Shown: piece by piece, positions 10,536 through 63,724 of the stretch
Layout of the letters: each line of letters begins with the position of its first letter
Position numbering within the stretch: position 1 is the stretch's first letter
IMG/VR virus record: IMGVR_UViG_3300026382_000001
Length of the DNA stretch: 64,000 bases
Direction: 5' to 3' (one strand)
DNA from: a virus
Lineage: Duplodnaviria; Heunggongvirae; Uroviricota; Caudoviricetes
The notes under the pieces: generated by a model
Database searches by the model: none
What the model was told of the DNA's origin: nothing
Seen by the model: only the letters and a program-made list of their open reading frames with translations
Program-made: the position numbers and the translations under genes

Positions 10536-10967
10536 TTATTCAAAATTAATAGTTAAATCTTTTTTCTTTAATTCTTCAATCTCTTTTTCTAATTTTTTTA
10601 TATTAACATTAAGTATTTTTTTATCTTCTTTTAATTCACTTATATGATTTTGAAAAGTTTCCCGTTCTATTATACATACCGAATAACTAGTTAAAAATTC
10701 ATGATTTTTACTAAATAAGGATTTATTAATATTTATATTATTTATTACTTTAAATACTTCCTCTAATGATAATTTTATATTACATGTCTCTACTTTACCA
10801 TTTATATTTTTATTATTAAAAAATTTTAATAAATCTGTATTATTTTTAACGCCATCTAAATTTTCAATTATTAATTTTTCAATTGCTATTGTATAATCTG
10901 ATATTGATTCGTCCTCACATATATCTAATAATCTATCTATTTCTTCTTGACTTAATATATCTGCCAT
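10536..10967 (-). CDS. protein with FliM N-terminal (CheY-P binding) peptide mimic
   Basis: Starts MADILSQEEIDRLL (FliM-N consensus LSQxEIDxLL); remainder unrelated to FliM; ends KKKDLTINFE. Confidence 0.7.
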   Translation of the reverse strand: MADILSQEEIDRLLDICEDESISDYTIAIEKLIIENLDGVKNNTDLLKFFNNKNINGKVETCNIKLSLEEVFKVINNININKSLFSKNHEFLTSYSVCIIERETFQNHISELKEDKKILNVNIKKLEKEIEELKKKDLTINFE

Positions 10968-10978
10968 TTTATTTCCTA

Positions 10979-11512
10979 TTAATGCAATTCTTTTTCTAAT
11001 TCTATTGGTTTAAAATTAGTACCAGTAAAATAGGTAATGTTTTCCGGGGTTGGGTCTAATCTATATCCGCGAGTATAACGAAATTGATTCATAATACCAT
11101 GTGCAATTTGCTTATAAAATTTTCCAGGATAAATATCTAAATTCGAATTACCTATAATTAGAATAGTTAAATATTCTTTATATCCAGGCACTAAAGATTT
11201 ATACATAAATGGTCTCGTATTAATTATATATGGTTTATTATCTACAATATCGATTACATAATGCCAAGGTAAAAATAAATCCCTTTTTGAACCACCATAC
11301 ATTTCATGAAAATAATCCGACAATTTACTTGTATTAAAGGCCATCGTATCTACTTGGAATAATTCCATTTTCCAAAAAGGATTATTCCAAGTATCCATTA
11401 TTACCCAACCTTTTGGATGAGTAATGTTCATATTGTTATGTTTAAAAGAATTCTCTACATAATTTTCGTAATGGTAATTCTTCAAACCTTGATTAATTTC
11501 TTCTCTCGTCAT
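10979..11512 (-). CDS. degenerate N-acetylmuramoyl-L-alanine amidase-like protein
   Basis: PWHYVID segment and size resemble Amidase_2; the Zn-binding HH is not evident. Confidence 0.4.
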   Translation of the reverse strand: MTREEINQGLKNYHYENYVENSFKHNNMNITHPKGWVIMDTWNNPFWKMELFQVDTMAFNTSKLSDYFHEMYGGSKRDLFLPWHYVIDIVDNKPYIINTRPFMYKSLVPGYKEYLTILIIGNSNLDIYPGKFYKQIAHGIMNQFRYTRGYRLDPTPENITYFTGTNFKPIELEKELH

Positions 11513-11523
11513 TTATTTTCCTT

Positions 11524-12657
11524 TTAATTATGTTGTGCATTTAAAACTTCTCTAAGAATTATTAAATCGGTTGTTAACCCTATATTATAAAAAGCCGATT
11601 GAACCGCCGATCCAAATACAGTTGCTTGATTAGTTCTCTTATCATTAATATACTTTTGAGCCTCTATAGCTATTGGGACCGATATGGCCATTGCCCAAAT
11701 AGTTCTTGCTTGTAAAGAAGCTTTAGATGTTTCGGTATCTGTATCTTGTCCAACCGGTGGGGTCATACTTTTAAAAGTACTTTTACTTTCTTTTTCCAAT
11801 AAGTCGGTATCTGCTGGATCAGCATAAAAAACTATATTTAAAGCCCCAAGAACTTTTACTGCGATATAAATTTCGTCCATAAAACCTTCCATAGCATCTA
11901 ATAAAGTATTTAAATCCCTTAATCCCACTTCAAGTTTAGTTTTATACTTATTTATGGCATTAATAAAAGGTTCCGCATCTGCCTCATAATTAAGTTGACC
12001 TACATCCGGAACAGTATAATTATTATAATAAGCGTATGAAAGATTGGTTTTGGTATTACAATCTAAATTTGTGGCATCTTGATAATTATTATAATTAGCA
12101 TATATTTGATAATTATCAAATTGTTTTATAAAATCATTGTAAATGCTATCAAAGTACGCCATGATATTTCCATATTTAATAGCTTCCTGAATTTCTTGGA
12201 CTTGTCTAAACATTTCCATAAAATCACATTCAAATTTAGATACTTGTTTGGCCATACTATAATTTTGTAAAAAGTTCCCAACCCCTTTATCTAAGGTTGC
12301 TATTAATTTAGCAAAAACTCCATCTACTTTACCAATGGTTGGATCATATACGCCACGAGGATTTTCCTCTCCATTTAAACAATCGGTACATCTTAAAATT
12401 TTTTCGGTTAATTTTTCTACTAATGGTCCAAGAGGTTCCTCATTAAAATCTCTTTTAATAATATCCCAAAAGGTTTCGCTATAATCACAATCAGTATTTT
12501 CTATATAATCTAGAGCATCTATTCTTCCTAACATATAATTATCTATATTTTTTAAAAATTCGGTATATTTTTTAAAATGTAAGATAACGATCCAGTCAGT
12601 ATTTTGATTAAAATATAATCTGTCGTCTTTATAATCTGGGCTCATGAAGTTTATCAT
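11524..12657 (-). CDS. hypothetical baseplate-region protein
   Basis: 377 aa ORF directly downstream of PAAR; CxxC motif. Confidence 0.65.
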   Translation of the reverse strand: MINFMSPDYKDDRLYFNQNTDWIVILHFKKYTEFLKNIDNYMLGRIDALDYIENTDCDYSETFWDIIKRDFNEEPLGPLVEKLTEKILRCTDCLNGEENPRGVYDPTIGKVDGVFAKLIATLDKGVGNFLQNYSMAKQVSKFECDFMEMFRQVQEIQEAIKYGNIMAYFDSIYNDFIKQFDNYQIYANYNNYQDATNLDCNTKTNLSYAYYNNYTVPDVGQLNYEADAEPFINAINKYKTKLEVGLRDLNTLLDAMEGFMDEIYIAVKVLGALNIVFYADPADTDLLEKESKSTFKSMTPPVGQDTDTETSKASLQARTIWAMAISVPIAIEAQKYINDKRTNQATVFGSAVQSAFYNIGLTTDLIILREVLNAQHN

Positions 12658-12699
12658 TAATTTTTCCTTAAAATTTTATGTATTGTGTTATCGTAACTA

Positions 12700-13008
12700 T
12701 TACATGCTCATATTCATCGGATCGCCTGATACAATCATCGCTTGTACTATTGGACCAACTACTGTAGCACCTAATGTACTCGTTGGCATACCACTATTTA
12801 AATCCATTGGTACTCCAGTCATAATCATGGCTGAACCACATGGAAATATAACAGTATCCCCCATCCGAGCGGTTGGCATACCAGTATTAAGGCTCATTGG
12901 ATCGCCGGATACAACTATTCCAGTGGCTGGTTGAGGACCTGGTCCAGCTGGTGGAGGAGGCCAAAAACAAGTACCAAAAGCAGTATCTCCAATTCGGGTA
13001 ACTACCAT
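12700..13008 (-). CDS. PAAR-repeat spike tip protein (T4 gp5.4-like)
   Basis: 102 aa; TRIGD, GMPTARMGD and GMPTSTLGA repeats; Cys residues. Confidence 0.85.
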   Translation of the reverse strand: MVVTRIGDTAFGTCFWPPPPAGPGPQPATGIVVSGDPMSLNTGMPTARMGDTVIFPCGSAMIMTGVPMDLNSGMPTSTLGATVVGPIVQAMIVSGDPMNMSM

Positions 13009-13028
13009 ATTATTTCCTTTATATCTAG

Positions 13029-13439
13029 TTATATATCTAGTAATATAACTAATTTATTTTCTATTTCCGATATTTTTATTAAATTTTTAAAAAATTTATT
13101 TTTCGGTTTTGGAATTTTTATTTTATTATCTGAAATTTCAAATACTCTATATATTTTATGTATTGGTATTAAAATTTTTCCATATTTTTTAGTTTTAATT
13201 AACATAAGAATTTTTGCATGTTCTATTTCTATATTTTTAGAAGTCAGTCCAATTAATTTATTTAAATTAAAAACTGGAAAAATCGTATTCCGAATAATAC
13301 CAAAACCATAACTCGGAGAATTTAATTCACCCGTTTTTGTAATTTTTATATCCTGAGTTCTCATAAATTCTATTATATTTTCCGCTGGAAAAGCAAATAT
13401 TTCATCCGAATTTGGTAATTCAAAAACTGCTATTTTCAT
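13029..13439 (-). CDS. cheW: CheW-like chemotaxis coupling protein
   Basis: 136 aa; VFEL..EIFAFP..NIIE..ITK..GIIRNTIFPVFNLNKLIG..IHKIYRV..LVILLDI matches the CheW pattern. Confidence 0.7.
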   Translation of the reverse strand: MKIAVFELPNSDEIFAFPAENIIEFMRTQDIKITKTGELNSPSYGFGIIRNTIFPVFNLNKLIGLTSKNIEIEHAKILMLIKTKKYGKILIPIHKIYRVFEISDNKIKIPKPKNKFFKNLIKISEIENKLVILLDI

Positions 13440-13447
13440 ATTAATCC

Positions 13448-15586
13448 TTAATATTGAAATAATATTCCTCGGTCATTGTAAATTCCACCAACATTTTTAT
13501 AATAATTAAGAACTGGATAAAAAGATTCAAAAATTCCATTTATAATAATATCCTCTTGATATGTATCATAAAGAACTATTGGACCACATAGAGTATCGAA
13601 AGGTTTTATATATCCTTTTTTACTGAATGAATACTCCGCGTAAAAACTATTTAATTGAAATCTTTTATTTATTGCGTCTAAATTAGTCTCATCTAAATTC
13701 ATAACTTCGTTAATTTTTCTAGTACTACTTGTACTTAAAAATTCATATTCCGAAGCGGCCGATAAATTTTTATAATGTATTGTTGTATCAAACGTCTGTT
13801 TATTAAAATCATATCTTAATGTTAATTGATACCAGTTACCTGGAACAAAGTTTACAAAAATTTCAGAATGATAACCATGAAAATCAATATTTAAAGTCAT
13901 ATCTCTTTCATTATAATATATACAATTATTATTAATTGGATCGGATATTAAAACCTGTCTTGAAACATCATAATATGAATTTCTAAAACTTGTATTCATA
14001 AAAGCATTTCTTTTAAAGAAAAGAATTAAAGTAAAACTTTCATTAGTGAATTTATTCTTACAAAACATATCGTCTATTATAACATGGTTCGGAAAAGTAT
14101 AATTACCTGATTTTCTAGTTTCTAAATACCAATCTTTTCCTCTCATTGATAACGGTTTACCTAATGATTTATAAGGATAAACTTTATTATAAACGATTCT
14201 AGTTTCTTCTTTGGATTTATTAAAAAAATCATAATATGCTAAAGCTCCATATAAATCTGGAAAATAGTTTTGACCAAAGGTTATATTATTAATATCTATT
14301 CGATCTTCTTGTAGATGAACATCGTATATCTTACCACAGAATTGTTTTAACCCACTTTTATCCATACCTAAATAATATAATCCCGTTTCAGTCGTACTGG
14401 ATTCTTCATCTGTATAAGTATCGGTTCCATAAAATCTTTTTAATTCTAAAGTATGGTAATTATAATTTCTAGTATAAACCATAGTATAAATAACTTCTGG
14501 AAGTATTTTAGCATCTGGAATATCAGTAATATTAATTTCAAGTTTCTTTTTCATTGAATCTGAAATAGTTCCATCTAAATTTGAATCGACAGCTGAGCCT
14601 AAATATTGCGTAGTATTATCTACTATACTTTGACCATCAATGTATTTATCAAAATTTAGTACTTCTAATTGACCATTATTAATTTGAATAATTAAATTTC
14701 TATCTAAATTTATTTGAAGCAATGGTATTCCATAAGTTGGTAAAGAATTTTTTAATAAATCAGTTACGTGATTATTTAATGCTTCTGTGGAAGCATCTGC
14801 TACATTTACTCCAGTTTTTTCTTCGATAATATTTAATTGATTTTGAACCACTTTAGATATACCATCTTGAATTAAATTAGTATTATATTCTTCCATAGTG
14901 CTTGCACCAAGTTTTAATTTCTTCGTTTCCGTTTGAACTATATTTTTAAGTTCCGAATTATCTGGTAAATTACATAATGGTTCAGAAATAGTTGGTTCTA
15001 TATTATTTCCTGGATTAATTTTAGGTAATGCATTTAAAAAAGTTGCCTTTAAAGTTTCCTCTATTCCAGTCGCAGATTTACATATTTTAGTATTATCAGA
15101 TAAATCCATTGTAACAGTTTCTATAATTTCAGCATCCATATTTTCTATATTAATTGTTGTAGTATTTGCTTCCGAAAGAGCTTCTTTATCTTCTTCTGAA
15201 AGTTCTGGACAATCAGGTAAAGTACTTGGATCGTCTATACCATTATTTATCATATCTAAAGCATCGTTTATATCTGATTCAGCTGTATCTAAACTTTCTT
15301 TAGATACGACTCTTTGAATTGAATCTAAAAGAACTAAATCACTTAATGTTCCATCGTAACCATAATTATTTAATAACATTGATCCAAGATTATTTAAATC
15401 TAAAGTTTTATTATTTATAATTAAACCATCATCTTCATAATACGCCTGATTTGAAACTTCAAATGTAATACTTATACTAAATTTACTTTTATTTTTAAAA
15501 GTTTTAAATTGAGCTCCAAGGCCATTATAATCCATAATATTATTTACAGTTGGTGCTAATTCAAATATATTTTCTGGTACTAACAT
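13448..15586 (-). CDS. virion protein with C-terminal LamG/concanavalin-like domain
   Basis: SFTLILFFKR..GNWYQLTLRYD..GPIVLYD LamG-like pattern; first gene after a late-type promoter. Confidence 0.55.
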   Translation of the reverse strand: MLVPENIFELAPTVNNIMDYNGLGAQFKTFKNKSKFSISITFEVSNQAYYEDDGLIINNKTLDLNNLGSMLLNNYGYDGTLSDLVLLDSIQRVVSKESLDTAESDINDALDMINNGIDDPSTLPDCPELSEEDKEALSEANTTTINIENMDAEIIETVTMDLSDNTKICKSATGIEETLKATFLNALPKINPGNNIEPTISEPLCNLPDNSELKNIVQTETKKLKLGASTMEEYNTNLIQDGISKVVQNQLNIIEEKTGVNVADASTEALNNHVTDLLKNSLPTYGIPLLQINLDRNLIIQINNGQLEVLNFDKYIDGQSIVDNTTQYLGSAVDSNLDGTISDSMKKKLEINITDIPDAKILPEVIYTMVYTRNYNYHTLELKRFYGTDTYTDEESSTTETGLYYLGMDKSGLKQFCGKIYDVHLQEDRIDINNITFGQNYFPDLYGALAYYDFFNKSKEETRIVYNKVYPYKSLGKPLSMRGKDWYLETRKSGNYTFPNHVIIDDMFCKNKFTNESFTLILFFKRNAFMNTSFRNSYYDVSRQVLISDPINNNCIYYNERDMTLNIDFHGYHSEIFVNFVPGNWYQLTLRYDFNKQTFDTTIHYKNLSAASEYEFLSTSSTRKINEVMNLDETNLDAINKRFQLNSFYAEYSFSKKGYIKPFDTLCGPIVLYDTYQEDIIINGIFESFYPVLNYYKNVGGIYNDRGILFQY

Positions 15587-15608
15587 TTAATTTCCTTTAA
15601 TTTATTAT

Positions 15609-15617
15609 TATTTAGTT
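15609..15617 (-). promoter_or_regulatory. late-type promoter AACTAAATA
   Basis: Exact motif just upstream of 13448-15586; resembles T4-type late TATAAATA/CTAAATA. Confidence 0.6.
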
Positions 15618-15656
15618 CTTTAATATAGAAATAGACTTTGAAAATATTTAAGTTTT

Positions 15657-15756
15657 TATCTATAGTTAACTATCTGTACACTCACTACAGATAGTTAACT
15701 ATTGATACCATCAACTAAAGAGACAAATGTATATAGATAACTATAGTTATCCTGTT
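15657..15756. repeat. palindromic intergenic repeat cluster C
   Basis: ATAGTTAACTAT x2; 15706-15745 is 38/40 identical to the reverse complement of 36334-36373. Confidence 0.9.
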
Positions 15757-15770
15757 TTAAAATATTTTTT

Positions 15771-15815
15771 AACGACAAGAATATACCTTAATAGAGAAAT
15801 TCTCTATTAAGGTAT
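15771..15815 (-). terminator. intrinsic terminator with TTCTTGTCG tail
   Basis: 15-bp stem, after 15822-16442. Confidence 0.8.
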
Positions 15816-15821
15816 TAAATA

Positions 15822-16442
15822 TTAATTCCAAGATATTAATTCTACATCTTCCTTATTAACACATACTTCTACATCTTTCAATAATTTTTGATATTTTCCC
15901 AAAGCACTGGATTCCATAATTTTATAATCCGAAGCTTTTTCTAAAATTTTAGTTATTAATTCATCCTTGGTTTCGTCAAGATCTCTTGATACTAATAAAT
16001 TATCAATAAATGGAGTTTTTACATTATTATCTATTATATAATTATTTGCTTCGGTTTCTTGATAAATCCAAGATTCTCTTTCGTTAACCGGATAAATAAT
16101 TCTCGAATTTTCGTAATCCATTCTAAGTTCGATTATTTTATTTTCTTTAATTTGATTTAATGTTAAATTTCCTTCTTGACCTTCAGGTTGAACCCAATTA
16201 AAAGTAAGATCATGTAGGTAAGATAATTGTTCATCGGTGAGTGGTCTAGTTTCGTTATTAACGTTAGTGAAAAATTTAGTATTTAAATCACTGTCGTCAT
16301 ATTCTAAATATATATAATCTTCCGATATATCTGGAGGAGTATTTTTTCCATACACTCCATTTGGATATAAATCATTTTCTATGTAAATATTATTTACCTC
16401 ATCGTTTAAATATTCACCATAATTCCATACTATTAATTTCAT
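15822..16442 (-). CDS. tail fibre assembly chaperone-like protein
   Basis: ERESWIYQETEA..TPFIDNLL..LITKILEKA pattern typical of fibre chaperones; follows a fibre gene. Confidence 0.65.
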   Translation of the reverse strand: MKLIVWNYGEYLNDEVNNIYIENDLYPNGVYGKNTPPDISEDYIYLEYDDSDLNTKFFTNVNNETRPLTDEQLSYLHDLTFNWVQPEGQEGNLTLNQIKENKIIELRMDYENSRIIYPVNERESWIYQETEANNYIIDNNVKTPFIDNLLVSRDLDETKDELITKILEKASDYKIMESSALGKYQKLLKDVEVCVNKEDVELISWN

Positions 16443-16452
16443 TTAATTTCCT

Positions 16453-17151
16453 TTAAAATATTATTTTTACTAATCCGTTACCACCACGGCCGGTACTCAC
16501 ATTAGTATAAGCATAAGCGTAAAAACCTATACCTCCACCACCACTACCATAACCACCATTACTACCAAAACCATAACAAGCTCCACCATTACCACCATTA
16601 CTATATCCAGAAGATATACCACCATATCCATAATGGTAGGAATATTTTGCTCTAATGCCGTCTTTACTACTAGTATAACAACCATTTCTAGAACCACCAT
16701 TACCATAACCACCAGAACCAGAACCACCACTAGCGCTGTATCCACCGGCAGAAGTTGTTCCACCGGCTCCACCATTTGACCAAGTATTGGAAATAGAGTT
16801 ACCACCAGCACCAATAGAAATAACTAAAGATTGACCATCACTATAATTAATGGTCTTTGTAACTATTGTACCTGCGGTACCACCAGTAGCGGTAGTTTGT
16901 TGACCCGAACCACCACCACCTGCTCCAAGTAAACATATGGTTACATCGGTATTAGCTGGAAAATCTTTTCCAGCTATTAAAGTTTTAGAAGTTGTTACTA
17001 TGATAGGAGAAGTAAATGCTGATGGAGGAGGTGGTATATATATTTCCCAAACCTTTATTTTATTAGCATATAGTTTATTCATTTCTTTACCATTAGCTAT
17101 TAATTTTCCACCGTTTTCTGGTATAGTTATACCAAATATTTCTAAACCCAT
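16453..17151 (-). CDS. glycine-rich tail fibre/receptor-binding protein
   Basis: LLGAGGGGSG..ISIGAGG..GSGGGG..GRGGNGLVKI glycine-rich domain. Confidence 0.7.
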   Translation of the reverse strand: MGLEIFGITIPENGGKLIANGKEMNKLYANKIKVWEIYIPPPPSAFTSPIIVTTSKTLIAGKDFPANTDVTICLLGAGGGGSGQQTTATGGTAGTIVTKTINYSDGQSLVISIGAGGNSISNTWSNGGAGGTTSAGGYSASGGSGSGGYGNGGSRNGCYTSSKDGIRAKYSYHYGYGGISSGYSNGGNGGACYGFGSNGGYGSGGGGIGFYAYAYTNVSTGRGGNGLVKIIF

Positions 17152-17184
17152 AATAATCCTTTATATTAATAATAGGTGAACCCT

Positions 17185-17460
17185 TTACGCGTCTGTACCG
17201 TCATTAGTTAAATAAACTGTACCCGTATCTTCATCCACCCTCATTTTAACGACCCCACCGACAGTACTTGTAGCCCAAGTAGTTTTAGTAGCTAAGTCAT
17301 CTATACCTACTCCACTAACAGTCGCCGCATCTATACCAGAATTGGGACCATCTATTTTTAGAATTTCTTCTAATAGATTTTCAGTACTTAATTTAGTATT
17401 TCTTAAATCCTTTATATCTGCTCCAACCATCTGTCCAATAGTACTTAATGTATCTGCCAT
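17185..17460 (-). CDS. small fibre adaptor protein (MADTLSTIG N-terminus)
   Basis: N-terminus almost identical to 19642-21009; GPNSGIDAATVSG fibre motif. Confidence 0.65.
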   Translation of the reverse strand: MADTLSTIGQMVGADIKDLRNTKLSTENLLEEILKIDGPNSGIDAATVSGVGIDDLATKTTWATSTVGGVVKMRVDEDTGTVYLTNDGTDA

Positions 17461-17491
17461 AATTTTTTCCTTTATAAATCAATTTTATTAT

Positions 17492-17500
17492 TATTTAGTT
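17492..17500 (-). promoter_or_regulatory. late-type promoter AACTAAATA
   Basis: Upstream of 17185-17460; flanks nearly identical to the 15609 site. Confidence 0.6.
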
Positions 17501-17547
17501 CTTTATATAAAAATAGACAATTATTGAGGAGAGTATTGCTCCAATCA

Positions 17548-19632: not shown

Positions 19633-19641
19633 AAGGATCCT

Positions 19642-21009: not shown

Positions 21010-21011
21010 AA

Positions 21012-50716: not shown

Positions 50717-52555
50717 CTATTTAGAATTATTTTTTAACACATTAATATCATAAATATAAACTGATCCAGCATCAACCGTTCCAGTATCTTCTACATATGC
50801 TCCAACAACTAAAGTATCATTTGAAATAGATACATTGAATCCAAAATAATCGATCCCTTGACCATCAATAGCTTGAATTTTTATTTCAGATGCCATGATA
50901 CTATCACTATCAAATTTCGTTAAATCATACATATAAACCGACCCAGCATCCGTCCCATTAGTATCTTGCCAAGGCGACGAAACAACTAAAGTATCATTTA
51001 AAATAGCTACATTGTATCCAAACTGGTCCCGGATATTTATATCGCTCGAGATAATTTTTATTTCGGATGCCTTGATACTATCAATATCAAAGTTCGTTAA
51101 ATCATAAATATAAGCTGATCCGGCAAGTGTCCCATTAGTACTGTTTGCATGTGCTCCAACAACTAAAGTATCATTTGAAATAGATACATTGTATCCAAAA
51201 TAACCACGTGTTTGCACCACACTAGCATGAATTTTTATTTCAGATGCTTGGATACTATCAATATCAAAGTCCGTTAAATCATAAATATAAACTGCTCCAG
51301 CATCAGTAGTCCCAGCATCTTCTGCATATGCTCCAACAACTAAAGTATCATTTGAAATAGATACATTGAATCCAAAATAATCACCAGATTGTGCATCACT
51401 AGATCGAATTTTTATTTCAGATGCTTTGATACTATCAATATCAAAGTTCGTTAAATCATAAATATAAACTGCTCCAGCAACATCTTCTCCATATGCTCCA
51501 ACAACTAAAGTATCATTTGAAATAGTTACATTGTATCCAAAATAGTCATTAGCTCGAATATCATTAGATTGAATTTTTATTTCAGATGCTTTGATACTAT
51601 CAATATCAAAGTTCGTTAAATCATAAATATAAACTGATCCAGCAGACGATCCAGTAGTATCTTCTCCATATGCTCCAACAACTAAAGTATTATTTGAAAT
51701 AGATACAGTGTATCCAAAATAGTCCGACTTTTGAGCATTACTAGCTTGAATTTTTATTTCTAAATCTTTTTCAATATCATAAATATAAACTGATCCAGCA
51801 TCGGTTTCAGTGGTATCTTCATTAGGTGCCCCAACAACAATATATTTATCGGTATTACATACAGAACGCCCAAAATAGTCTTTACTTTGAGCATCACTAG
51901 CTTGAAGTTTAATACTATTATAAAATTGAGTTTTTTTAAGAATAAAATTTTCATTTTCTTTATCAGTACTGAATAAATTAATAATATTATTATAGTTATT
52001 AAATTTTAAAGCAGATAGACTATCACCAACTTCAGGATCTCTAAAATTTAAATAAATTTCTTTATTATCGATTGGGATAATTGAAAATGGTTTAGTAATA
52101 TCTAGTACCATATTTCCAGATGTACCAATAGTACTAAAAACTCCATTAATAACATAATTCAACTCTGGAGCATCGGTACGAGCATTAATAGTAATATCTA
52201 AATCTCCAGATTTAATAATACCTGAATCTGTTACATCATCAACGTTATAATTATTTACGAATGATTCATTCGTAATGCTAAAAGATATTTCCGAAGTTTC
52301 CGTCATAGTTATTTCTGGAATTATTAAAGTATTAAGGTATCTTAATGAACCATTTGCCATTTTACCATTAATTTTCTCATTTATGTTAACCGCTTCTGTA
52401 TTATTAATACTAACAATTACAGTAATTCTTTGATTTACAAAATCTGGTAAATAAATATCCTTTAATCCTTCCCCAATAAAAGAATCTGGAAAAGTAGTAC
52501 TAAAAGGATTATTCACCATAAAAGCATTGGCTTGTATATTTTTATTTAAATTCAT
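50717..52555 (-). CDS. FG-GAP repeat seven-bladed beta-propeller protein
   Basis: Seven repeats of the type DYFGxxVxISNDTLVVGAxxED..AGxVYIYD. Confidence 0.85.
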   Translation of the reverse strand: MNLNKNIQANAFMVNNPFSTTFPDSFIGEGLKDIYLPDFVNQRITVIVSINNTEAVNINEKINGKMANGSLRYLNTLIIPEITMTETSEISFSITNESFVNNYNVDDVTDSGIIKSGDLDITINARTDAPELNYVINGVFSTIGTSGNMVLDITKPFSIIPIDNKEIYLNFRDPEVGDSLSALKFNNYNNIINLFSTDKENENFILKKTQFYNSIKLQASDAQSKDYFGRSVCNTDKYIVVGAPNEDTTETDAGSVYIYDIEKDLEIKIQASNAQKSDYFGYTVSISNNTLVVGAYGEDTTGSSAGSVYIYDLTNFDIDSIKASEIKIQSNDIRANDYFGYNVTISNDTLVVGAYGEDVAGAVYIYDLTNFDIDSIKASEIKIRSSDAQSGDYFGFNVSISNDTLVVGAYAEDAGTTDAGAVYIYDLTDFDIDSIQASEIKIHASVVQTRGYFGYNVSISNDTLVVGAHANSTNGTLAGSAYIYDLTNFDIDSIKASEIKIISSDINIRDQFGYNVAILNDTLVVSSPWQDTNGTDAGSVYMYDLTKFDSDSIMASEIKIQAIDGQGIDYFGFNVSISNDTLVVGAYVEDTGTVDAGSVYIYDINVLKNNSK

Positions 52556-53798: not shown

Positions 53799-53870
53799 CT
53801 TATAATCGATATAAAGAATACAATACGTAAGTATTTTTTATTTTCAAATAAATATAAAAAGGAGTCTTAA

Positions 53871-55103: not shown

Positions 55104-55115
55104 ATAGTTTTAAAG

Positions 55116-55147
55116 GACAGGAAAAGAAAGGCTAACGCCTTTCTTTT
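55116..55147. terminator. bidirectional terminator with TTTCCTGTC tail on the minus side
   Basis: 11-bp stem between convergent genes. Confidence 0.85.
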
Positions 55148-56053
55148 TTATTCGAAATTAAAATAGATTTTTGAAGATTTTAAAAAATAGTTTAATTTTA
55201 TTCGTTTAAAATTTTTTGGTTTTATTTTTTTATTATGTAAATAATATTCTTCTTTTTCTTCGTTAATAATAGCTGGCCCATCTTCTCTATGTAATTCCCC
55301 ATTTTTATAATATTTTTGTTGATAATTTTCTACCCATGCTGGACCATCTTCTCTATGCAGTAATCCATCTTTATAATATCTTTCTTCAAAAGAATGACTA
55401 ATTTTACATAGTTTTTTATACGCTGGTTGAAATTCATCAGATATTACTTTAGAATCTAATTCAGAATATTTATTAAAATGACATTCGAGAATGTCCAAAT
55501 GATTTATTAAAATAAAATTATAATTTTCTTCTTCTCTAATTATATATTCTTGAAATTTATTTATAATAATTTCTAGATTTATATCACTTTCTTTAAGTGA
55601 AGTATTGGATAAAAAATGATAAAATATATCAGAATGTTCGTTAAAATCATCTAAGAATTTTTCTTTTGGGAATTTCTTATCTTCTGGTTTTAAAAAATAT
55701 CTTAATCTTAATTGCAATAATGATTCATAAGAGGTATTATTATTTAAAGAAGTACTATAAAGTATTTTAAATCTTTTAATAGTATTTAAGTATTTATATA
55801 ATTTATTTTTGGTATCTTTAAATAAAAAATATGAAATATTTATATCATAACCTATATGTATTTTATTACTATCATAATATGGAACCATTTTTATTATTCC
55901 ATTAATTTTATTATCTTTATATAAAAATAATTTTTTATTTTTATTTTTATTAAATTTATTATAAAAGAATACCTTCATATTAAGGTATTGTTTATTTAAC
56001 CAATTATCAAACTTTTCTAATTGTTTTGAAAATTCACATTTTATAATTGCCAT
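55148..56053 (-). CDS. hypothetical protein with LHREDGPA repeats
   Basis: YYKDGLLHREDGPA and YYKNGELHREDGPA MORN-like repeats common in phages. Confidence 0.75.
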   Translation of the reverse strand: MAIIKCEFSKQLEKFDNWLNKQYLNMKVFFYNKFNKNKNKKLFLYKDNKINGIIKMVPYYDSNKIHIGYDINISYFLFKDTKNKLYKYLNTIKRFKILYSTSLNNNTSYESLLQLRLRYFLKPEDKKFPKEKFLDDFNEHSDIFYHFLSNTSLKESDINLEIIINKFQEYIIREEENYNFILINHLDILECHFNKYSELDSKVISDEFQPAYKKLCKISHSFEERYYKDGLLHREDGPAWVENYQQKYYKNGELHREDGPAIINEEKEEYYLHNKKIKPKNFKRIKLNYFLKSSKIYFNFE

Positions 56054-56083
56054 AGTATACCTTTAATTATTTTTATAATTAAG

Positions 56084-56092
56084 ATATCTATA
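56084..56092 (-). promoter_or_regulatory. second promoter class TATAGATAT
   Basis: 31 bp upstream of 55148-56053; also at 1898-1906 and 48673-48681. Confidence 0.45.
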
Positions 56093-56103
56093 ATCGCTTA
56101 GAA

Positions 56104-56170
56104 CAAGATAACTATTAATAGTTAACTATTCATAGTGTGTGTACTGATAGTTAACTATTAATAGTTATTC
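56104..56170. repeat. palindromic intergenic repeat cluster G
   Basis: gataactattaatagttaactattcatagtgtgtgtactgatagttaactattaatagttatt. Confidence 0.9.
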
Positions 56171-56218
56171 TCTTTTTTTTGCTAAGTAAAATAGATTTTT
56201 GAAATTACCTAAATTTTT

Positions 56219-56253
56219 CGACAGGAAATTCTAGAAGCTTAGGCTTCTAGAAT
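56219..56253 (-). terminator. intrinsic terminator with TTTCCTGTCG tail
   Basis: 11-bp stem, after the major capsid gene. Confidence 0.85.
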
Positions 56254-56281
56254 AAATTTAAAGGTTTATATAATCCAAGGA

Positions 56282-57835
56282 TTATACGTTAACGAAACCT
56301 TCGTAATTTTTGATACGGATTGTACCAATACCTTCTTGACGAACTATACCAATCCAAGTTCTTGATTTGATAAATGTACGTTTGATACTATTAGTAGTCT
56401 CAGTAATGATATAAAGAGGTTTAAATAGTACTTCAACAAGTGAACTTTGGTTAGTAGCAGGTGCAGTAAGAACTAAGTGTAATAGATCATCAGCAATTGC
56501 ATAAGACTCAACGATTTCAAGTTTATTGAAACCTGATTGAACTCCACCCTGAACAGAATAGTTACCATTCATTTTTTCCATAGATACAGCGAACTCTTGA
56601 AGAGATTTAAGTACTACAGCTACATCAACACCACAAGCAAGATATTGAACTTCCATATTGTTTGTTTTACGCATTTTCTCTACTAGAGACATAATTGTAG
56701 GAACAATATTTTTGAAGATATCTTGGATATTTGAAGGTTTGAAACCATCAGCAGATCCAAATCTTGAGAAGTCTACTTCTTTATATTGACCAATTGATTG
56801 AGCAAATGGAATATTAGATTCAAGTAGTTCAGCAATCTCGAAATCTCTATTTAACTTGATTTGACCTTTTACAAAGTTTTTAAGCTCTGAAATGATATCA
56901 AGTTTATAAATTGCTGACCAATCTTGAATTACTTCTTCAATATTTTCAACTTCGAAAGAATCTTCGATATCTGCATTAACGTCAATGATTTCTTGTTTTG
57001 GAGCTGACTTAACAACACCACGACCATTACCATTACCAAAAAGTCTGAATTTAATTTCAATAGTATCTTCAGTTACAGTTTTGTCACCTGGTTCAATAGT
57101 AATTACAGAAGATGTAATTGAACCTGATTCAAAGTCAACAGAACCTTGAAGTTTATAAACACCACCAGTTACACCTGGAACAACAAAAGAATCAACTGTA
57201 AAGTTACCACGAGCACCTGCGATAGCAGTTACTGGAACATTTTCAACAGTAGTGTTTGTACCATCATCAACAACAACGTCGATACTTACAACTTTGAAAT
57301 TTCTTTTAGAAAGTCTGAAATCACCTTTAGCAATACCAAGTTCGCTATAAAGATTTGCAGATTGAGCAACTTTGAATTGTTTGAAATCTGGACGAATCAT
57401 TGAAGTAGCAGTTGGGAACATGTACTCAGTAACTCCACCTTTTTCATCAATTACTTTAGATACCCATTTGATTCTAGAAATAGAAAGAGTTGGCATATCA
57501 GTTGGAACTGTTGTAACGATTTTGCTAAGTTGTGGCTCAGCATAGATGTTAATAAGCATTGGAATAGTAGTTACAGCATATGCAATAGCTTCTGGAGAAG
57601 TTAAAAGAGCTGAACTTTCCTCAATAAACATTTTACGTTCACGATCAAGTACTGGAAGAATTTTAGCAACAACGCTTTCTTCTAGACCTTTAGTAAGACT
57701 TGATACATACATATCAAAGTAAGAATCATCAAAGATGATCTCAGCTGGTGTTTTTGCTTCTTCGAAAAGATTCGAGTGATCTTTCGTAAACATATCATAG
57801 TTCTCGAGGATTAAATTATCAATTAATTTAGCCAT
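56282..57835 (-). CDS. major capsid protein precursor (HK97 fold, gp23-like)
   Basis: 517 aa; acidic propeptide with xEE sites; QDWSAIYKLD..QIKLNRDFEI and TFIKSR segments; strong codon bias; own promoter and terminator. Confidence 0.8.
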   Translation of the reverse strand: MAKLIDNLILENYDMFTKDHSNLFEEAKTPAEIIFDDSYFDMYVSSLTKGLEESVVAKILPVLDRERKMFIEESSALLTSPEAIAYAVTTIPMLINIYAEPQLSKIVTTVPTDMPTLSISRIKWVSKVIDEKGGVTEYMFPTATSMIRPDFKQFKVAQSANLYSELGIAKGDFRLSKRNFKVVSIDVVVDDGTNTTVENVPVTAIAGARGNFTVDSFVVPGVTGGVYKLQGSVDFESGSITSSVITIEPGDKTVTEDTIEIKFRLFGNGNGRGVVKSAPKQEIIDVNADIEDSFEVENIEEVIQDWSAIYKLDIISELKNFVKGQIKLNRDFEIAELLESNIPFAQSIGQYKEVDFSRFGSADGFKPSNIQDIFKNIVPTIMSLVEKMRKTNNMEVQYLACGVDVAVVLKSLQEFAVSMEKMNGNYSVQGGVQSGFNKLEIVESYAIADDLLHLVLTAPATNQSSLVEVLFKPLYIITETTNSIKRTFIKSRTWIGIVRQEGIGTIRIKNYEGFVNV

Positions 57836-57982
57836 ATTATTTTTCCTTGTTAAAAAAATTATTTATTTTTTTGATTTTTTTTATTTATTTAATTAAATAA
57901 ATACTTAAATCGTTAAGTATTTAGAAAGTTTTGGTGGGATCTTACAACCCGAGAAAATCATAATTAAATAAATTTATTTCCT

Positions 57983-57991
57983 TATTTAGTT
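57983..57991 (-). promoter_or_regulatory. late-type promoter AACTAAATA
   Basis: Upstream of the major capsid gene. Confidence 0.6.
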
Positions 57992-58017
57992 ATATGTGGA
58001 TTTTCTTATTGTTTAAT

Positions 58018-58797
58018 TTATCTACGTACTTGGTTATATACCAAAGTATCGCCAGATGTTGTTGTTGGACTAGCAACGGTTCTTTTAATATTTTCAATAC
58101 CACCAGAAACATGACCAACTAAGGTACCCATTGGACCAGAAGTTAAAGGATTTAAATAAGATTGAACTGGATGGTCTGCTCTGATCTGAGCTAAATCGTC
58201 TGTATAATTATTATACGAAGCTCTTACAACATCTTTTTCAGCATTCCAAGGATTATTAGTAACATCTGCCGCTACAGTAACTTTATTACTTATATCTGGA
58301 GAATCAGTATCCTTCAATATTTTATATGCGCCTTTTTCAATGGAACCCATTCCTTTTATAATACCATGAGATAATGGTCCACCTACAAAAGGATTTAATA
58401 AATAATGACCCGTATTTTTATCAAAATTTTGAGACATTACATTATCCATATTATTATAGATTTGTCCTCTTGCTCTCATTGATTTATCCCAAGCACCATC
58501 CTCCTCAAGAGTTTTATCAGTACTTTCTTTAAGAATCTGTTGAGGTTGAGGTTGAGGTTGACCAGCATTTGGAATAGTACTTTGGCTTAATTCATATGGG
58601 TTTTGTCTACGACCATAATAAGCTAAAGCTCCATAAGGTGTTGCTAACATCGGTCCACCCAGAATAGCTGCGCCAATTACCGAACCAGCAGTATTCATAC
58701 CACTATTATGATTACTTAAACCCACCTCGTTAGCGTTTGGAGCCATTACTACTTGAGCTTCTTCTAAAATAGCTTTTTTATTTATTTCTAATACCAT
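58018..58797 (-). CDS. putative internal head/ejection protein
   Basis: MVLEINKKAILEE N-terminus; glycine-zipper helix; internal duplicated LLNPFxGGP/YLNPLTSGP module. Confidence 0.55.
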   Translation of the reverse strand: MVLEINKKAILEEAQVVMAPNANEVGLSNHNSGMNTAGSVIGAAILGGPMLATPYGALAYYGRRQNPYELSQSTIPNAGQPQPQPQQILKESTDKTLEEDGAWDKSMRARGQIYNNMDNVMSQNFDKNTGHYLLNPFVGGPLSHGIIKGMGSIEKGAYKILKDTDSPDISNKVTVAADVTNNPWNAEKDVVRASYNNYTDDLAQIRADHPVQSYLNPLTSGPMGTLVGHVSGGIENIKRTVASPTTTSGDTLVYNQVRR

Positions 58798-58813
58798 TTG
58801 AATTCCTTAATTT

Positions 58814-59617
58814 TTATTTGCGTTGAGATGCTTTATACAGAGCCGCTCCACCAAGTCCTAAACCAGCTACACCAAGACCAGTATTAATATTCGCTCGCAT
58901 TGTATTACTTGCGCCAACTTTAGCATTATTTTGAATACCAGTTCGATTTTGAGAAATTTCTTCCTCATTCATAGCACCAGTTGCTTCATTATCATCTACT
59001 CTACTATTTGTATTGGCAATATTTGTAAGATTTTTAGCAATTGCTTTATGATTATCAGTACCAGTTTGAGAATTTACTTTAATATCTTCTTGGTTAGTAT
59101 GTATGTCGTTATCTTGGTGCATATTATGCTGAGAGTTCGCAAACGATCTCATTTTATTTGTAGTTATATTATGTTCATTTTGAGCTACACCAGAAGCATT
59201 TTGAGCTACACCAGAAGCATTTTGAGCTACACCAGAAGCATTTTGAGCTATATCATTATTAACCGATTCGGGTACTAAACCTTCTTTAACTCCCTCGACA
59301 CTATTATGATAAGCAGCCGAAGTACGTTCAGCTCCTTGCATAAAAGCTGGTTTAATTGTATGGTAAGCATTTTGTCCAACTGATTGCATATTATTATAAA
59401 CCTTTTTTCCTTGCGCTACAATATCATCATGCAATTGGCTATTTGGACCACCAGCCGTATATTGATCAATAGCATCTACTTTTGGCGTTACTGTATTATT
59501 CCACCAATTAGATACTCCTTCACCAATCTTTGAAAATTGTTCTCCAACTCCTGGAATTTCTTCCCCAAGAGCATTTATATCTTCTAAAAGTAACTTTTTA
59601 TTTATTTCTAATATCAT
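58814..59617 (-). CDS. putative internal head/ejection protein
   Basis: MILEINKKLLLED N-terminus; AQNASGV repeats; C-terminal GLGVAGLGLGGAALY helix. Confidence 0.55.
   Translation of the reverse strand: MILEINKKLLLEDINALGEEIPGVGEQFSKIGEGVSNWWNNTVTPKVDAIDQYTAGGPNSQLHDDIVAQGKKVYNNMQSVGQNAYHTIKPAFMQGAERTSAAYHNSVEGVKEGLVPESVNNDIAQNASGVAQNASGVAQNASGVAQNEHNITTNKMRSFANSQHNMHQDNDIHTNQEDIKVNSQTGTDNHKAIAKNLTNIANTNSRVDDNEATGAMNEEEISQNRTGIQNNAKVGASNTMRANINTGLGVAGLGLGGAALYKASQRK
59176..59250. repeat. 21-bp in-frame tandem repeat, about 3.6 copies
   Basis: cattttgagctacaccagaag x3 plus a partial copy. Confidence 0.9.
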
Positions 59618-59671
59618 TGTATTTCCTATTTTATTTGTATTATTGTTTTGTTCTATCCAATTTTCAGTAAT

Positions 59672-59697
59672 ATATTTATTAGCATGCTAATAAATAT
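59672..59697. repeat. perfect 26-bp palindrome
   Basis: atatttattagcatgctaataaatat. Confidence 0.85.
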
Positions 59698-59920
59698 CTT
59701 TTAAAAATCCGAACTATTTGAGTGAACCAATGGAGTATCGTTTTTAACATATTCATGCTTACTAGAGAAAGCTTTTTTTATTTTAGAGTCAATATACCAA
59801 ACCATTTAGATAATGTATGTATTGCTTCATCGCCATGATTGGGTCGAAAATATTTTCCAATATTTATATTTGGTTTTATTTATAGTTTAGTTAGTTTATT
59901 ATTAATTTGTATAAATAAAA

Positions 59921-59951
59921 GACAGGAGATTCTTGGTATTAGCCAAGAATT
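59921..59951 (-). terminator. intrinsic terminator with TCTCCTGTC tail
   Basis: 10-bp stem directly after the porin gene. Confidence 0.75.
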
Positions 59952-61141
59952 TAAAATAAATAATCTAATCTAAAATATATTCTTTTATCGTATTGATCTG
60001 TTTTTACTACAGCGTTACCACCTTTTAATTTTTGATAATTAATATCAGAGTACTTAAAATTAATACCAATATTTAATTTTGGCGTTAAACTAACGCCTGT
60101 ATAAAATTTATAAATATTCCCAAGATCTCCCCAAGAATAACTATCTTTATTATACTCATCTGTTACAGCCGATACCCAATATTTACTACTATGAAAATAT
60201 TCAATTCCATAATAAATATCTTTTTTAATAATTGGTAAATAATTTATTTTTTTAGCTCCTAAAAAAATACTATAACCATATCTAGAACCTTCGTTTGTGA
60301 ACGAAGCTCCTGGACTAGTTGGATCGGTAAATCCTGGTGGGAGAATTAATGGTTGTTCATTTGGTGTTAATTTAGTTCCATCGAAATCTGTTTTTGAACC
60401 GGCTATAATACCATATAAAGAATAATCAGGAGTATCATAGGATATTCCAATCCCAAACATATATAAATAACCTAAACTAACATCTTCGTCCCCAGATATA
60501 TTTTCATAAACTATGTCAGAAATACTCGTATTAAATTTAAATTTTAAATCATTGTTTAAATAATTTTTACTAGCAAATAAAAAGGCAATGTTTGATCCTG
60601 GTACAGTATGTTCATATCGATTTGTTGGTGATAATTCGTATTTTGTTCGTTCCGCATACCCCAGTTGTATTTTTCCATTATCAAAATGATGAGTATAAAA
60701 TACTCCAGGTAATGTTAAATAATACATAGTATATAAAGCATCCGATTGTTCTAGTCCTATTTTAGAATATTCCGACATACTTCCATACTTAAAAGATAAT
60801 AACCCAATAGTTAATATATCATCGTTGGTTATAAATGTATTTAAAGCCAATTCTGAAAATTCTAATTGAGTCCCTTCCTGAATTATATGATTATACGTTC
60901 TAGAATAACTTTCAGAATACTTAGAGAAATATATAGTACTAGTAATACTAAAATTATCAAATATAAAATCATTAAATGTCGTTATATCTATTAAATGACG
61001 AGAGCCAATATATTCACCGTTATTTTCCGAACTTGTGATAGTTCCATATACCACTTCTAAATAATTAGTATTCTTATATTCGAATGCCATAGCTAACTGA
61101 ACAACTATGCTTAATACCAAAATAATTTTAATTATCTTCAT
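59951..61141 (-). CDS. outer-membrane beta-barrel (porin-like) protein
   Basis: Signal peptide ending AMA; alternating aromatic strands; C-terminal beta-signal FRLDYLF. Confidence 0.75.
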   Translation of the reverse strand: MKIIKIILVLSIVVQLAMAFEYKNTNYLEVVYGTITSSENNGEYIGSRHLIDITTFNDFIFDNFSITSTIYFSKYSESYSRTYNHIIQEGTQLEFSELALNTFITNDDILTIGLLSFKYGSMSEYSKIGLEQSDALYTMYYLTLPGVFYTHHFDNGKIQLGYAERTKYELSPTNRYEHTVPGSNIAFLFASKNYLNNDLKFKFNTSISDIVYENISGDEDVSLGYLYMFGIGISYDTPDYSLYGIIAGSKTDFDGTKLTPNEQPLILPPGFTDPTSPGASFTNEGSRYGYSIFLGAKKINYLPIIKKDIYYGIEYFHSSKYWVSAVTDEYNKDSYSWGDLGNIYKFYTGVSLTPKLNIGINFKYSDINYQKLKGGNAVVKTDQYDKRIYFRLDYLF

Positions 61142-61505
61142 AATTATTCTCCTTTCTATTCTGTATTATAGAGCTTTTATTTTTTTTATCTCCAATACTT
61201 CTTTGGTATTTTTCTATTTTAAAACCATTATTAATTAGACAATCCGATAACTTTTTTTCATTTTTCGTACTTAAGTAGTGTATATGTAAATAATTTGTTA
61301 GAGCTCCTTCTTTATAAATACGATACCATCCTTTAGGGGAACGAACTTCTGGATCTATATCATATTCTTTAAAAAGTACAGTACAAGTACCATTTGAATA
61401 ATCTTTATTAATATTTTTAATCCTTTCTCGAGCGATTAAATTAGAATTTAATAATAAAAATATATAAAAAAATAATGTTGGTTTGCCCAAAAATAGTTTT
61501 TTCAT
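61128..61505 (-). CDS. small secreted/periplasmic protein
   Basis: Signal-like MKKLFLGKPTLFFYIFLLLNSNLIA; overlaps the porin start. Confidence 0.55.
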   Translation of the reverse strand: MKKLFLGKPTLFFYIFLLLNSNLIARERIKNINKDYSNGTCTVLFKEYDIDPEVRSPKGWYRIYKEGALTNYLHIHYLSTKNEKKLSDCLINNGFKIEKYQRSIGDKKNKSSIIQNRKENNYEDN

Positions 61506-61519
61506 ATTTCAACCTTATG

Positions 61520-62995
61520 TTAATAATTTTCTTTTTTTGCTTTAATTCCTGGAATCGTAATTTCAAAAACAGTTCCTTTTTCGGAGGTTTCCCTTAATTT
61601 TAAATTTCCATGATTATCCCGTAATAATTCCTTATTTAAATATAATCCTACTCCTCTTGCGTTATCTTCTTTAACTGGTTCTGGTGCTATTTTTAAAAAT
61701 CGATTTGTTTTAGTAAATTTCGTTTTTAAAATATGTACTAAATCTAAAATATAACCTTTTGAATTATAAATTTTAGATTTTCCATTTTTATTTTTAGAAC
61801 TGTAATAATCTTTAAAAATATTTTGATATTTTGATGGAGATAGTAATAATCCAGTATCTGGATCTCTAAGACCAGTCCCATTATCAATTATAAATATATG
61901 TATTAATTTTATTTTTTCATTTTTAGTATCAGATACTTTTAGCTGTAGATGTATTTTTGTGGCACTGGCTTCTATACTATTTCTTAAATGATTAGAAATT
62001 ATATTTAATAAATCAGCATTTTTTAAATATCCATCTCCATGTTTAAGACTCCATTCCTCAAATGCTGGATCAATTATAATTTCAAAATAAGAAGCTTTAT
62101 AAATACTCATAGAATTAGCCGAATAATTTAAAATATCAAATAATGTTTTATTACCATTACTGTATTTGAGATTTTTAAAATTACTCATTCTTTCTAGTAC
62201 TGTACCAATTTGATCAATACTCGAATAAATCATGTCAAAATCTATTCCTTTAAATTGTTCGGTTAATGCACATGTTTTAAAACAATTTTTCGAAATATCA
62301 TATTGTCTTTTTAAAGATTGTTCTATTTTTAAAACAGATCCTTGAATAATAGCTACTGGAGTATTTAATTCATGATGTATATTTTCAGTAAGTATTTGCA
62401 TATTCTTTTCTCTAAGAATACTGCTAGTATTTATAACATCTAAAGCTTTTCGTCTTGATAATTTAAATTCATATATAAAAAATATAAAAGTAATAGGTAT
62501 TATAAATATAACATAAATATAAAAATACCCTTTTAGTAATTCGCTTAACGTATAATAACTATTACTTGATAAATACAAATTATATTTTGGTAAAGTTATT
62601 ATAATATTTTTATGTAGGTCTTCGTTAAAAGCTGTATTAACAGTATTTTCTATTATTGGAATTTTATTCAATTTCCAATAAATATTAATTATTTTACGAT
62701 TATTATTTTTTATTAATTTGCCATCTTTTAATACGTATGATTTATTTCTATTTATAAAACCAATTTGAGAACAGTTTGAAATAGTACAAATATGTTGTAA
62801 ATCTATTTCGTGATATTCTTCAATTGTTTTTACTACGGTGTTTTTTAAATTTTCTTTATACATGTGAACTATATTGTGAAAATTATTACCAAGTACTGCT
62901 CCCATTAATAAAGTATATATAGTTATTAAACCAAGATACTTAAAAAATATTGATCCAGAAGCATGATATAAACTTCCCATTTTAGAGGTTTCCAT
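61520..62995 (-). CDS. membrane sensor histidine kinase
   Basis: Two TM segments; H-box NIHHELNTP; N-box NHLRNSIEA; G1 IIDNGTG; G2 RGVGLYL. Confidence 0.9.
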   Translation of the reverse strand: METSKMGSLYHASGSIFFKYLGLITIYTLLMGAVLGNNFHNIVHMYKENLKNTVVKTIEEYHEIDLQHICTISNCSQIGFINRNKSYVLKDGKLIKNNNRKIINIYWKLNKIPIIENTVNTAFNEDLHKNIIITLPKYNLYLSSNSYYTLSELLKGYFYIYVIFIIPITFIFFIYEFKLSRRKALDVINTSSILREKNMQILTENIHHELNTPVAIIQGSVLKIEQSLKRQYDISKNCFKTCALTEQFKGIDFDMIYSSIDQIGTVLERMSNFKNLKYSNGNKTLFDILNYSANSMSIYKASYFEIIIDPAFEEWSLKHGDGYLKNADLLNIISNHLRNSIEASATKIHLQLKVSDTKNEKIKLIHIFIIDNGTGLRDPDTGLLLSPSKYQNIFKDYYSSKNKNGKSKIYNSKGYILDLVHILKTKFTKTNRFLKIAPEPVKEDNARGVGLYLNKELLRDNHGNLKLRETSEKGTVFEITIPGIKAKKENY

Positions 62996-63004
62996 ATTGT
63001 ATCC

Positions 63005-63724
63005 TTAATTTACTAAATCGTATTTGGTGTTTTCAAAGACTCCGTCTTGTTTACCAATAATAAATTTGTCAAAATAATTATGTAGTGTTAATTCTATTAA
63101 TTCTTTACGATTACTAGTTTTATTTATAACATGTTTATAAATTTTAATATCTCCATTATTACTACTTGAAGTTTCTTCGATTTCATCCATTTTTACTTTA
63201 AAGGTGGTTTCAAATTTATGAATAAATTTAAATATTTCCGGATTATGTTTATTAAGAGTATGTCCAGTTACAAATTTAATTAAACAATCTGGATTACGTT
63301 CTTTTAAAAGAATTGCAATATCTATACCATCTAATTCTTCACCATTAATAATACCACCTAAAGTAATATCTAAAAAAGCTATATCTATAATTAAATCTGG
63401 ATTACTCATTAATAAATTTCTTATACTAAAACCAGCAAATATTCCAGTACTTACTATTATATTAAAATATTCTTTTACATTACAGCATCTTGCCTGATAT
63501 AATTCATCCTTGATTAATTCAGCCATTCCATCGAAATCATCCATAATAAATATTGTTTTAAGATCTTTATTAAATATAGCTTCTTTGTTTATATTTATTT
63601 CTGGTATTTCTATTTTATAATTATTTGAACCAAGATCCATTGGTTTAAGATAATCGAGTTCTTCTTGTTCTTCTTCTTGTTCTTCTTCTATAAAATAACT
63701 TTTTATTTTTTCAAAAATATTCAT
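63005..63724 (-). CDS. receiver-domain response regulator without DNA-binding output (CheY-like)
   Basis: IFIMDD acidic pocket; AFLDI phosphoacceptor; DGIDIA; FVTG; no HTH output domain evident. Confidence 0.8.
   Translation of the reverse strand: MNIFEKIKSYFIEEEQEEEQEELDYLKPMDLGSNNYKIEIPEININKEAIFNKDLKTIFIMDDFDGMAELIKDELYQARCCNVKEYFNIIVSTGIFAGFSIRNLLMSNPDLIIDIAFLDITLGGIINGEELDGIDIAILLKERNPDCLIKFVTGHTLNKHNPEIFKFIHKFETTFKVKMDEIEETSSSNNGDIKIYKHVINKTSNRKELIELTLHNYFDKFIIGKQDGVFENTKYDLVN

Follow-up and report, generated by a model that had tools for sequence, protein, structure and literature searches.

The locus and the phage that carries it

The stretch of DNA analysed here, referred to below as the window, comprises 64,000 nucleotides of the IMG/VR virus record IMGVR_UViG_3300026382_000001 (Caudoviricetes), and it encodes four proteins that recall bacterial chemotaxis and signalling: a protein beginning with the N-terminal docking peptide of the flagellar switch protein FliM (FliM-N; 10536..10967), a CheW-like protein (13029..13439), a histidine kinase (61520..62995) and a receiver without an output domain (63005..63724). 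An initial annotation had taken these for four chemotaxis-type parts of one circuit through which the phage would rewire the swimming of the infected cell. All four open reading frames (ORFs) are present and lie on the minus strand, and the observation itself was largely right. The chemotaxis label suits the FliM-N peptide and the CheW domain, but neither the kinase, which by its motifs is not a CheA, nor the receiver, which shows no preference for CheY. Phage mimicry of the flagellar-switch peptide together with an orphan CheW is plausible, and a four-part circuit is not supported.

The window belongs to the genome of an uncultured jumbo phage, in agreement with the context given in the initial annotation; it encodes a tail sheath, tail-fibre proteins, virion proteins and a cluster of six tRNAs, and its proteins are found on a 281-kb contig. 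The phrog_11065 virion protein of the window is 43% identical to its counterpart in Salicola phage SCTP-2 and 31-49% identical to those of phiKZ-like phages. The G+C content of the window is 27%, and the minus strand carries nearly all of its genes. Deposited phage genomes contain no close match to the window; the INPHARED phages match neither the window DNA nor the CheW-like protein or the receiver, scans of IMG/VR with the window proteins found no close copy of the phage, and single-protein searches of IMG/VR and JGI contigs with the CheW-like, FliM-N, 377-amino-acid (aa) and 694-aa proteins returned zero relatives. The DNA was sourced from hydrothermal vent metagenomes. The host is probably a member of the Campylobacterota, and a Sulfurimonas-like host is suggested by the FliM-type peptide, the vent source and the low G+C content.

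A protein that begins with the FliM docking peptide

ORF 10536-10967 (minus strand) encodes a 143-aa orphan protein that begins MADILSQEEIDRLL, a copy of about 20 residues of the FliM 'EIDAL' docking peptide placed at the N-terminus and followed by a helical or coiled-coil body. The FliM-type motif occurs a single time in the six-frame translation of the window; the strict pattern was found in 0 of 200 shuffled windows and the loose pattern 0.005 times per shuffle. The 14-residue start of the protein is the FliM start of Campylobacterota genomes, residues 1-11 and 13-15 being identical to Campylobacterota FliM (14/15), and 17 of the 24 N-terminal residues match Sulfurimonas FliM, including the acidic stretch behind the motif. 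A scan for ORFs starting with M-x-D-I-L-S-Q-E-E-I-D-x-L-L, using one genome per species, placed 70 of 80 loci among the matches listed in Campylobacterota (Sulfurimonas, Sulfuricurvum, Campylobacter, Helicobacter, Nautiliales and Hydrogenimonas). The genomic ORFs with this start are 350-370 aa long, and one that was sampled is FliM by Pfam (PF02154 and PF01052). The best PDB match of the phage protein is the FliM peptide itself, chain B of the CheY-FliM-N structure 4IGA. The presence of a FliM N-peptide at this locus, as initially annotated, is thus borne out by the close identity of the two starts.

Beyond the peptide, the likeness to FliM ends. The phage protein gives zero Pfam matches at E values up to 1 and lacks both the CheC-like middle domain (PF02154) and the SpoA domain (PF01052), for which the Sulfurimonas FliM reference scores 255 and 65 bits, respectively. 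Judged from its sequence, it carries the FliM peptide but is outside the FliM family. What this phage-encoded protein shares with FliM and FliY is the peptide, its extreme N-terminal position and the acidic stretch behind it, and it cannot be a part of the C-ring, since both the middle and the SpoA domains are missing. Among 5.8 billion proteins its only relative is itself, and a Protein Atlas search gave no usable match with a query model of low confidence. A recent capture of the 5' end of a host fliM gene was considered and rejected, as no more than 46 of 66 nucleotides match and upstream similarity is absent.

Campylobacter myophages share this kind of start, as emerged when IMG/VR was scanned for the peptide and deposited phages were searched with a short protein query. 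There it belongs to phrog_8774, a protein of 121-128 aa present in 29 Campylobacter phage records and annotated as hypothetical throughout, which starts MAQILSQEEIDALL or MAMILSQEEIDALL. The carriers belong to the Eucampyvirinae and include CP220, CP20, vB_CjeM_WX1 (gene 0109, L167:4001-4363), NCTC12673 (gp148, L169:4001-4387), CP81 and PC14; further copies lie at loci L151, L155, L156, L160, L161 and L164. The phrog_8774 proteins resemble the window protein in their small size, their FliM-peptide start and their helical body. In contrast, their bodies are unrelated to that of the window protein, their phages belong to another lineage, and a CheW is absent from the complete genomes of the Campylobacter phages with a FliM-N protein. 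One IMG/VR contig holds a full phrog_8774 copy together with a truncated 45-aa copy. The nearness of a FliM-N gene to a PAAR gene was considered as a pattern and dropped; it is seen in WX1 and not in NCTC12673, and is therefore probably a coincidence.

Two host partners are known for this peptide. The EIDAL peptide of FliM is the CheY-binding site (PMC6946799), and in polar flagellates the FliM N-terminus is what the flagellar-number ATPase FlhG uses to act on FliM and FliN (PMC12826062). The phage copy might accordingly target FlhG instead of CheY, upsetting the assembly of the C-ring, the number of flagella or, in Campylobacter, polar division control while leaving steering untouched. The candidate hosts, as polar flagellates of the Campylobacterota, would suit such a role, but the literature examined does not establish FlhG binding for Campylobacterota and the neighbouring CheW points to the chemotaxis pathway, so that FlhG as the target in place of CheY seems unlikely to us. 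The two readings are compatible, as one peptide can serve both partners.

A stand-alone CheW domain

ORF 13029-13439 (minus strand) encodes a 136-aa orphan consisting of a stand-alone CheW domain and lies between a 712-aa gene and a PAAR-like gene. It matches the Pfam CheW profile (PF01584) with 36.0 bits (cut-off 23.5) over profile positions 9-130 of 138. An AlphaFold2 model, for which the input alignment was built of CheW domains, reached a predicted local distance difference test (pLDDT) value of 88 and has the two-subdomain beta-barrel fold of CheW and CheA-P5; the 18 best PDB matches are without exception CheW or CheA-P5 structures, and the template modelling (TM) score to 2qdl is 0.79. 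Gly45 and Arg50, invariant in the CheW alignment, are retained. By profile and predicted fold, the protein is a true CheW domain, as the initial annotation had suggested.

The domain is remote from its cellular counterparts, with 20-30% identity to cellular CheW domains. Among 5.8 billion proteins its only relative is itself, and the best non-self match has an E value of 5e-8 (1.8 billion representatives searched). The best non-self matches include triple-CheW and CheV proteins. Some of the matched proteins are about 510-600 aa long and contain three matched CheW stretches each; for two of them (P0060 and P0061) three CheW domains each were confirmed by Pfam.

A second phage CheW was found in Salicola phage SCTP-2, a cultured jumbo phage of 440 kb, in which gp489 (L172:6759-7178) is an unannotated CheW-domain protein of 139 aa scoring 64 bits. 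Like CheW (PF01584) and gp489, the window protein consists of one domain with this fold, about 136-139 aa long, in which the conserved Gly and Arg are kept; its identity to gp489 is 32% across 56 residues. The viral structure database BFVD holds one viral protein only with a CheW fold; at 139 aa it has the length of gp489 and may be the same protein. SCTP-2 lacks the LSQxEIDxLL motif and has no convincing member of the receiver family. Unlike cellular CheW, the window protein is encoded in a baseplate operon with no CheA, receptor or CheV gene nearby.

A generic two-component pair

The receiver (63005..63724, minus strand) is a 239-aa protein that has 55 additional residues at its N-terminus and a beta-hairpin inserted ahead of beta5, and it is a core gene of this jumbo-phage clade, with 58 homologues, many of them on contigs of 200-295 kb. 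Its score against Pfam PF00072, 16.9 bits, is below the 30.2 cut-off. Nevertheless, its predicted model has the REC fold, only REC domains appearing among the 50 fold matches listed (target TM about 0.7), and the canonical sites are present, namely the acidic pair, the phospho-acceptor Asp, the Thr and the Lys. D63, D119, T153 and K202 are invariant in 20 homologues, at least 90% of which also retain D62. These features agree with the initial annotation of a receiver. Having no output domain, the protein must act by protein contacts.

It has nonetheless little that recalls CheY in particular, as CheY ranks no better among the fold matches than the receivers of HupR, NtrC1 or NtrX. In CheY, the face that binds FliM-N is alpha4-beta5-alpha5. 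The FliM-N protein might dock on the phage's own phosphorylated receiver to form a private circuit, for which the REC fold and the intact phosphorylation site would provide. The receiver family is, however, conserved in relatives without the peptide protein, and the peptide follows host FliM closely, which fits a host partner; a complex prediction with FliM-N residues 1-45 and the phage receiver gave a score of 0.02, which speaks neither way. Such a private circuit is highly improbable.

The adjoining histidine kinase (61520..62995, minus strand) is a 491-aa protein of the HisKA/HATPase_c type whose N-terminal sensor region, probably periplasmic, contains conserved cysteines. It matches HATPase_c with 35.9 bits and HisKA with 17.3 bits, the latter below its cut-off. 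In five phage homologues, with identities of 42-77%, its H, N, G1 and G2 boxes are conserved without exception (H207/H208, N335/N339, D371-G373-G375 and G448-G450), in keeping with the kinase initially assigned here. A Pfam match to Hpt (P1) or to a CheW-like P5 domain is absent, and an HisKA-type H box is found instead. On the strength of these motifs, the protein is a classical HisKA-type sensor kinase and not CheA. C70 and C75 are invariant in the N-terminal sensor region, and C238 is kept behind the H box; a redox or disulfide cue is possible.

Receiver and kinase are thus an intact but generic two-component pair with nothing specific to chemotaxis. As in classical two-component systems that combine a HisKA/HATPase_c kinase with a stand-alone receiver such as CheY or Spo0F, the two genes are adjacent and all catalytic motifs are kept. 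The pair differs from such systems in its occurrence in a lytic-type jumbo-phage clade, in the N-terminal extension and beta-hairpin insertion of the receiver, and in a kinase that is not CheA.

Distribution among relatives and operon context

Six relatives were examined: four from IMG/VR (G001-G004), a 286-kb ENA contig (L003) and a more distant one (L005). The closest of them, G001, is an 80.8-kb IMG/VR fragment with about 75% protein identity. Receiver and kinase are adjacent in five of the six (G001-G004 and L003), with a receiver identity of 35-77%, and L005 has a receiver without a neighbouring kinase. In L005 the receiver lies two genes after an endolysin (Glyco_hydro_108 and PG_binding_3; L005:8694-10708), which hints at a link of the receiver to lysis genes. 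The search for the CheW domain and the peptide covered G001-G004; the CheW domain is absent from these four relatives, and they are not among the contigs with the exact peptide pattern in the IMG/VR scan.

In G001 the gene order of the operon (712 aa, PAAR, 377 aa, 177 aa, 147 aa, 187 aa and 524 aa) has short clean junctions, and compared with it the window has three extra genes. The CheW-like gene sits between the 712-aa and PAAR genes, at a place where the syntenic site of G001 is without CheW, and the FliM-N gene sits with a 71-aa gene between the 177-aa and 145-aa genes, both missing at the syntenic site of G001. The CheW-like and FliM-N genes are on the same strand and in the same transcription unit, with gaps of 8-42 bp, and they are the most AT-rich genes of the operon (18.3% and 20.7% GC). 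The receiver and kinase genes lie about 50 kb away, in a different operon.

This distribution bears directly on the single circuit of the initial annotation, in which the kinase would sense a cue, phosphorylate the receiver and, with the CheW-like and FliM-N proteins, rewire swimming. A lack of co-conservation had been named there in advance as speaking against it, and the four genes are not co-conserved in relatives. In its favour, all four genes are intact within one genome and the receiver would in any case work through protein contacts. However, the pair is separated from the other two genes by distance and operon, and it persists in five of the six relatives when the other two are absent from every searchable one; complete Campylobacter phage genomes have FliM-N proteins without CheW; and kinase and receiver show nothing chemotaxis-specific. 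One integrated circuit is therefore very unlikely. A narrower version, in which the kinase senses an envelope cue and the receiver feeds the flagellar switch or the FliM-N/CheW pair, also appears most improbable. If true, it would mean that the phage steers or stops the infected cell on its own signal, a virus-owned sensory-motor circuit made of host-mimic parts added to an older phage two-component system.

The operon context also invites a reading with no role in motility, in which the phage has turned a CheW fold into a baseplate or assembly part, and what remains of a captured gene fragment forms the FliM-like start of a structural coiled-coil protein. Both genes do belong to the baseplate/PAAR operon and have no promoters of their own, and a C-terminal tail common to the 143-, 71- and 145-aa neighbours suggests a shared docking site. 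Yet G001 dispenses with both genes in making its virion, the peptide has been maintained at the protein level with no DNA-level trace of recent capture, and unrelated Campylobacter phages have the same peptide in the same terminal position. A purely structural function is, for these reasons, rather doubtful.

Two proposed modules with separate roles

The reading that we favour, and consider on balance probable, is that the genes belong to two separate modules, a recently acquired pair that damps the chemotaxis output of the host and an older system that senses the envelope. The identities of sequence and fold, the operon positions and the presence or absence among relatives are the established part of this reading; from them we infer every binding step, which way motility is affected, and what the second module senses and acts on. 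As for the initial proposal that the phage aims at swimming control, it stands as an inference for the FliM-N copy and CheW, but not for a kinase and receiver acting in the same circuit.

The first module (10.3-13.4 kb) would consist of accessory genes recently gained within the late baseplate/PAAR operon. Its 143-aa protein would be a soluble decoy whose helical body presents, at a free N-terminus, an almost exact copy of the docking peptide of host FliM, and it may capture phosphorylated CheY (CheY-P), and possibly FlhG, keeping both off the motor. The stand-alone CheW would enter, or compete for, the contacts between receptors and CheA, so that CheA output falls, much as with excess CheW in enteric bacteria, in which receptor trimers and polar arrays are broken up at high levels of CheW (PMC4718596, citing Cardozo 2010). 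Decoy and CheW would push in the same way, towards less CheY-P signal at the switch, and the proposed consequence would be fewer reversals and a loss of steering. The placement in a late operon is compatible with action late in infection or with transport in the virion.

The second module (59.9-63.7 kb) would be an older, clade-wide phage two-component system in which a membrane sensor kinase phosphorylates a receiver-only regulator. Its operon also holds small membrane-associated proteins and a DUF3373 protein, and the system is likely to relay a cue from the envelope or periplasm to a process of the phage.

Several points weigh against the damping of host chemotaxis by the first module. The phage CheW resembles its counterparts in candidate host genomes only remotely (E about 0.01) and may therefore not fit into host arrays. 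In addition, a position in a late operon is odd for a gene of host takeover and could indicate a virion role instead. G001-G003 are fragments, 23-65% complete, and the joint presence of the two genes in one phage and their joint absence in one relative amount to a single comparison. Moreover, since the decoy body and the CheW are without homologues, selection on them has no evolutionary support beyond their intact reading frames.

Phages that block motility organelles, or make use of them, are known. The literature searched describes neither a phage copy of the FliM docking peptide nor a phage CheW, and the nearest precedent is that of viral motA and motB genes (PMC8290583). New here are the FliM-peptide start in cultured Campylobacter phages and the unannotated CheW in SCTP-2. 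As the peptide copy recurs in cultured Campylobacter jejuni phages, chemotaxis silencing by phages would be directly testable in a laboratory system. The clade-wide two-component system, now set apart from the chemotaxis-like genes, is of interest by itself.

Neighbouring genes

The late operon begins with the gene of the 712-aa protein (13448..15586, minus strand), upstream of which lies a hairpin- and repeat-rich intergenic region (15587-15821). This protein belongs to the backbone of the operon and is 73% identical in G001. The backbone also includes a PAAR-like spike-tip protein of 102 aa (12700..13008, minus strand), which matches PAAR_motif with 18.8 bits, below the cut-off, and has a 99-aa homologue in G001, and a 145-aa coiled-coil protein (9875..10312, minus strand), which has a 147-aa homologue there. 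The 71-aa coiled-coil ORF (10305..10520, minus strand) is missing in G001 and has a C-terminal tail like those of its 143-aa and 145-aa neighbours. Three adjacent coiled-coil ORFs with similar tails (..LIVNFGN in the 145-aa protein, ..LIAKFE and ..LTINFE) thus occupy window positions 9875-10967, and the homologue in G001 ends ..LTVNFGN. The shared tail may reflect a common docking site or tandem duplication, although the statistics of this sequence likeness are weak; paralogy of the three ORFs was set aside, as just 14 C-terminal residues are similar (E 0.02).

Downstream in the kinase operon, a 125-aa protein and a 396-aa DUF3373 protein are encoded at 59951..61505 (minus strand). The former has a hydrophobic N-terminal segment, a putative signal peptide, and the latter matches PF11853 with 27.3 bits. 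The DUF3373 gene (59951-61141) is a variable addition to the kinase operon; the window, L003 and G002 have it, and it was found in neither G001, the closest relative, nor G003. Its use as a host marker was dropped, as it gave no usable match in genome contigs or in five candidate host genomes. Elsewhere in the window, positions 50717-52555 encode a 612-aa phage protein with seven FG-GAP repeats (315 bits).

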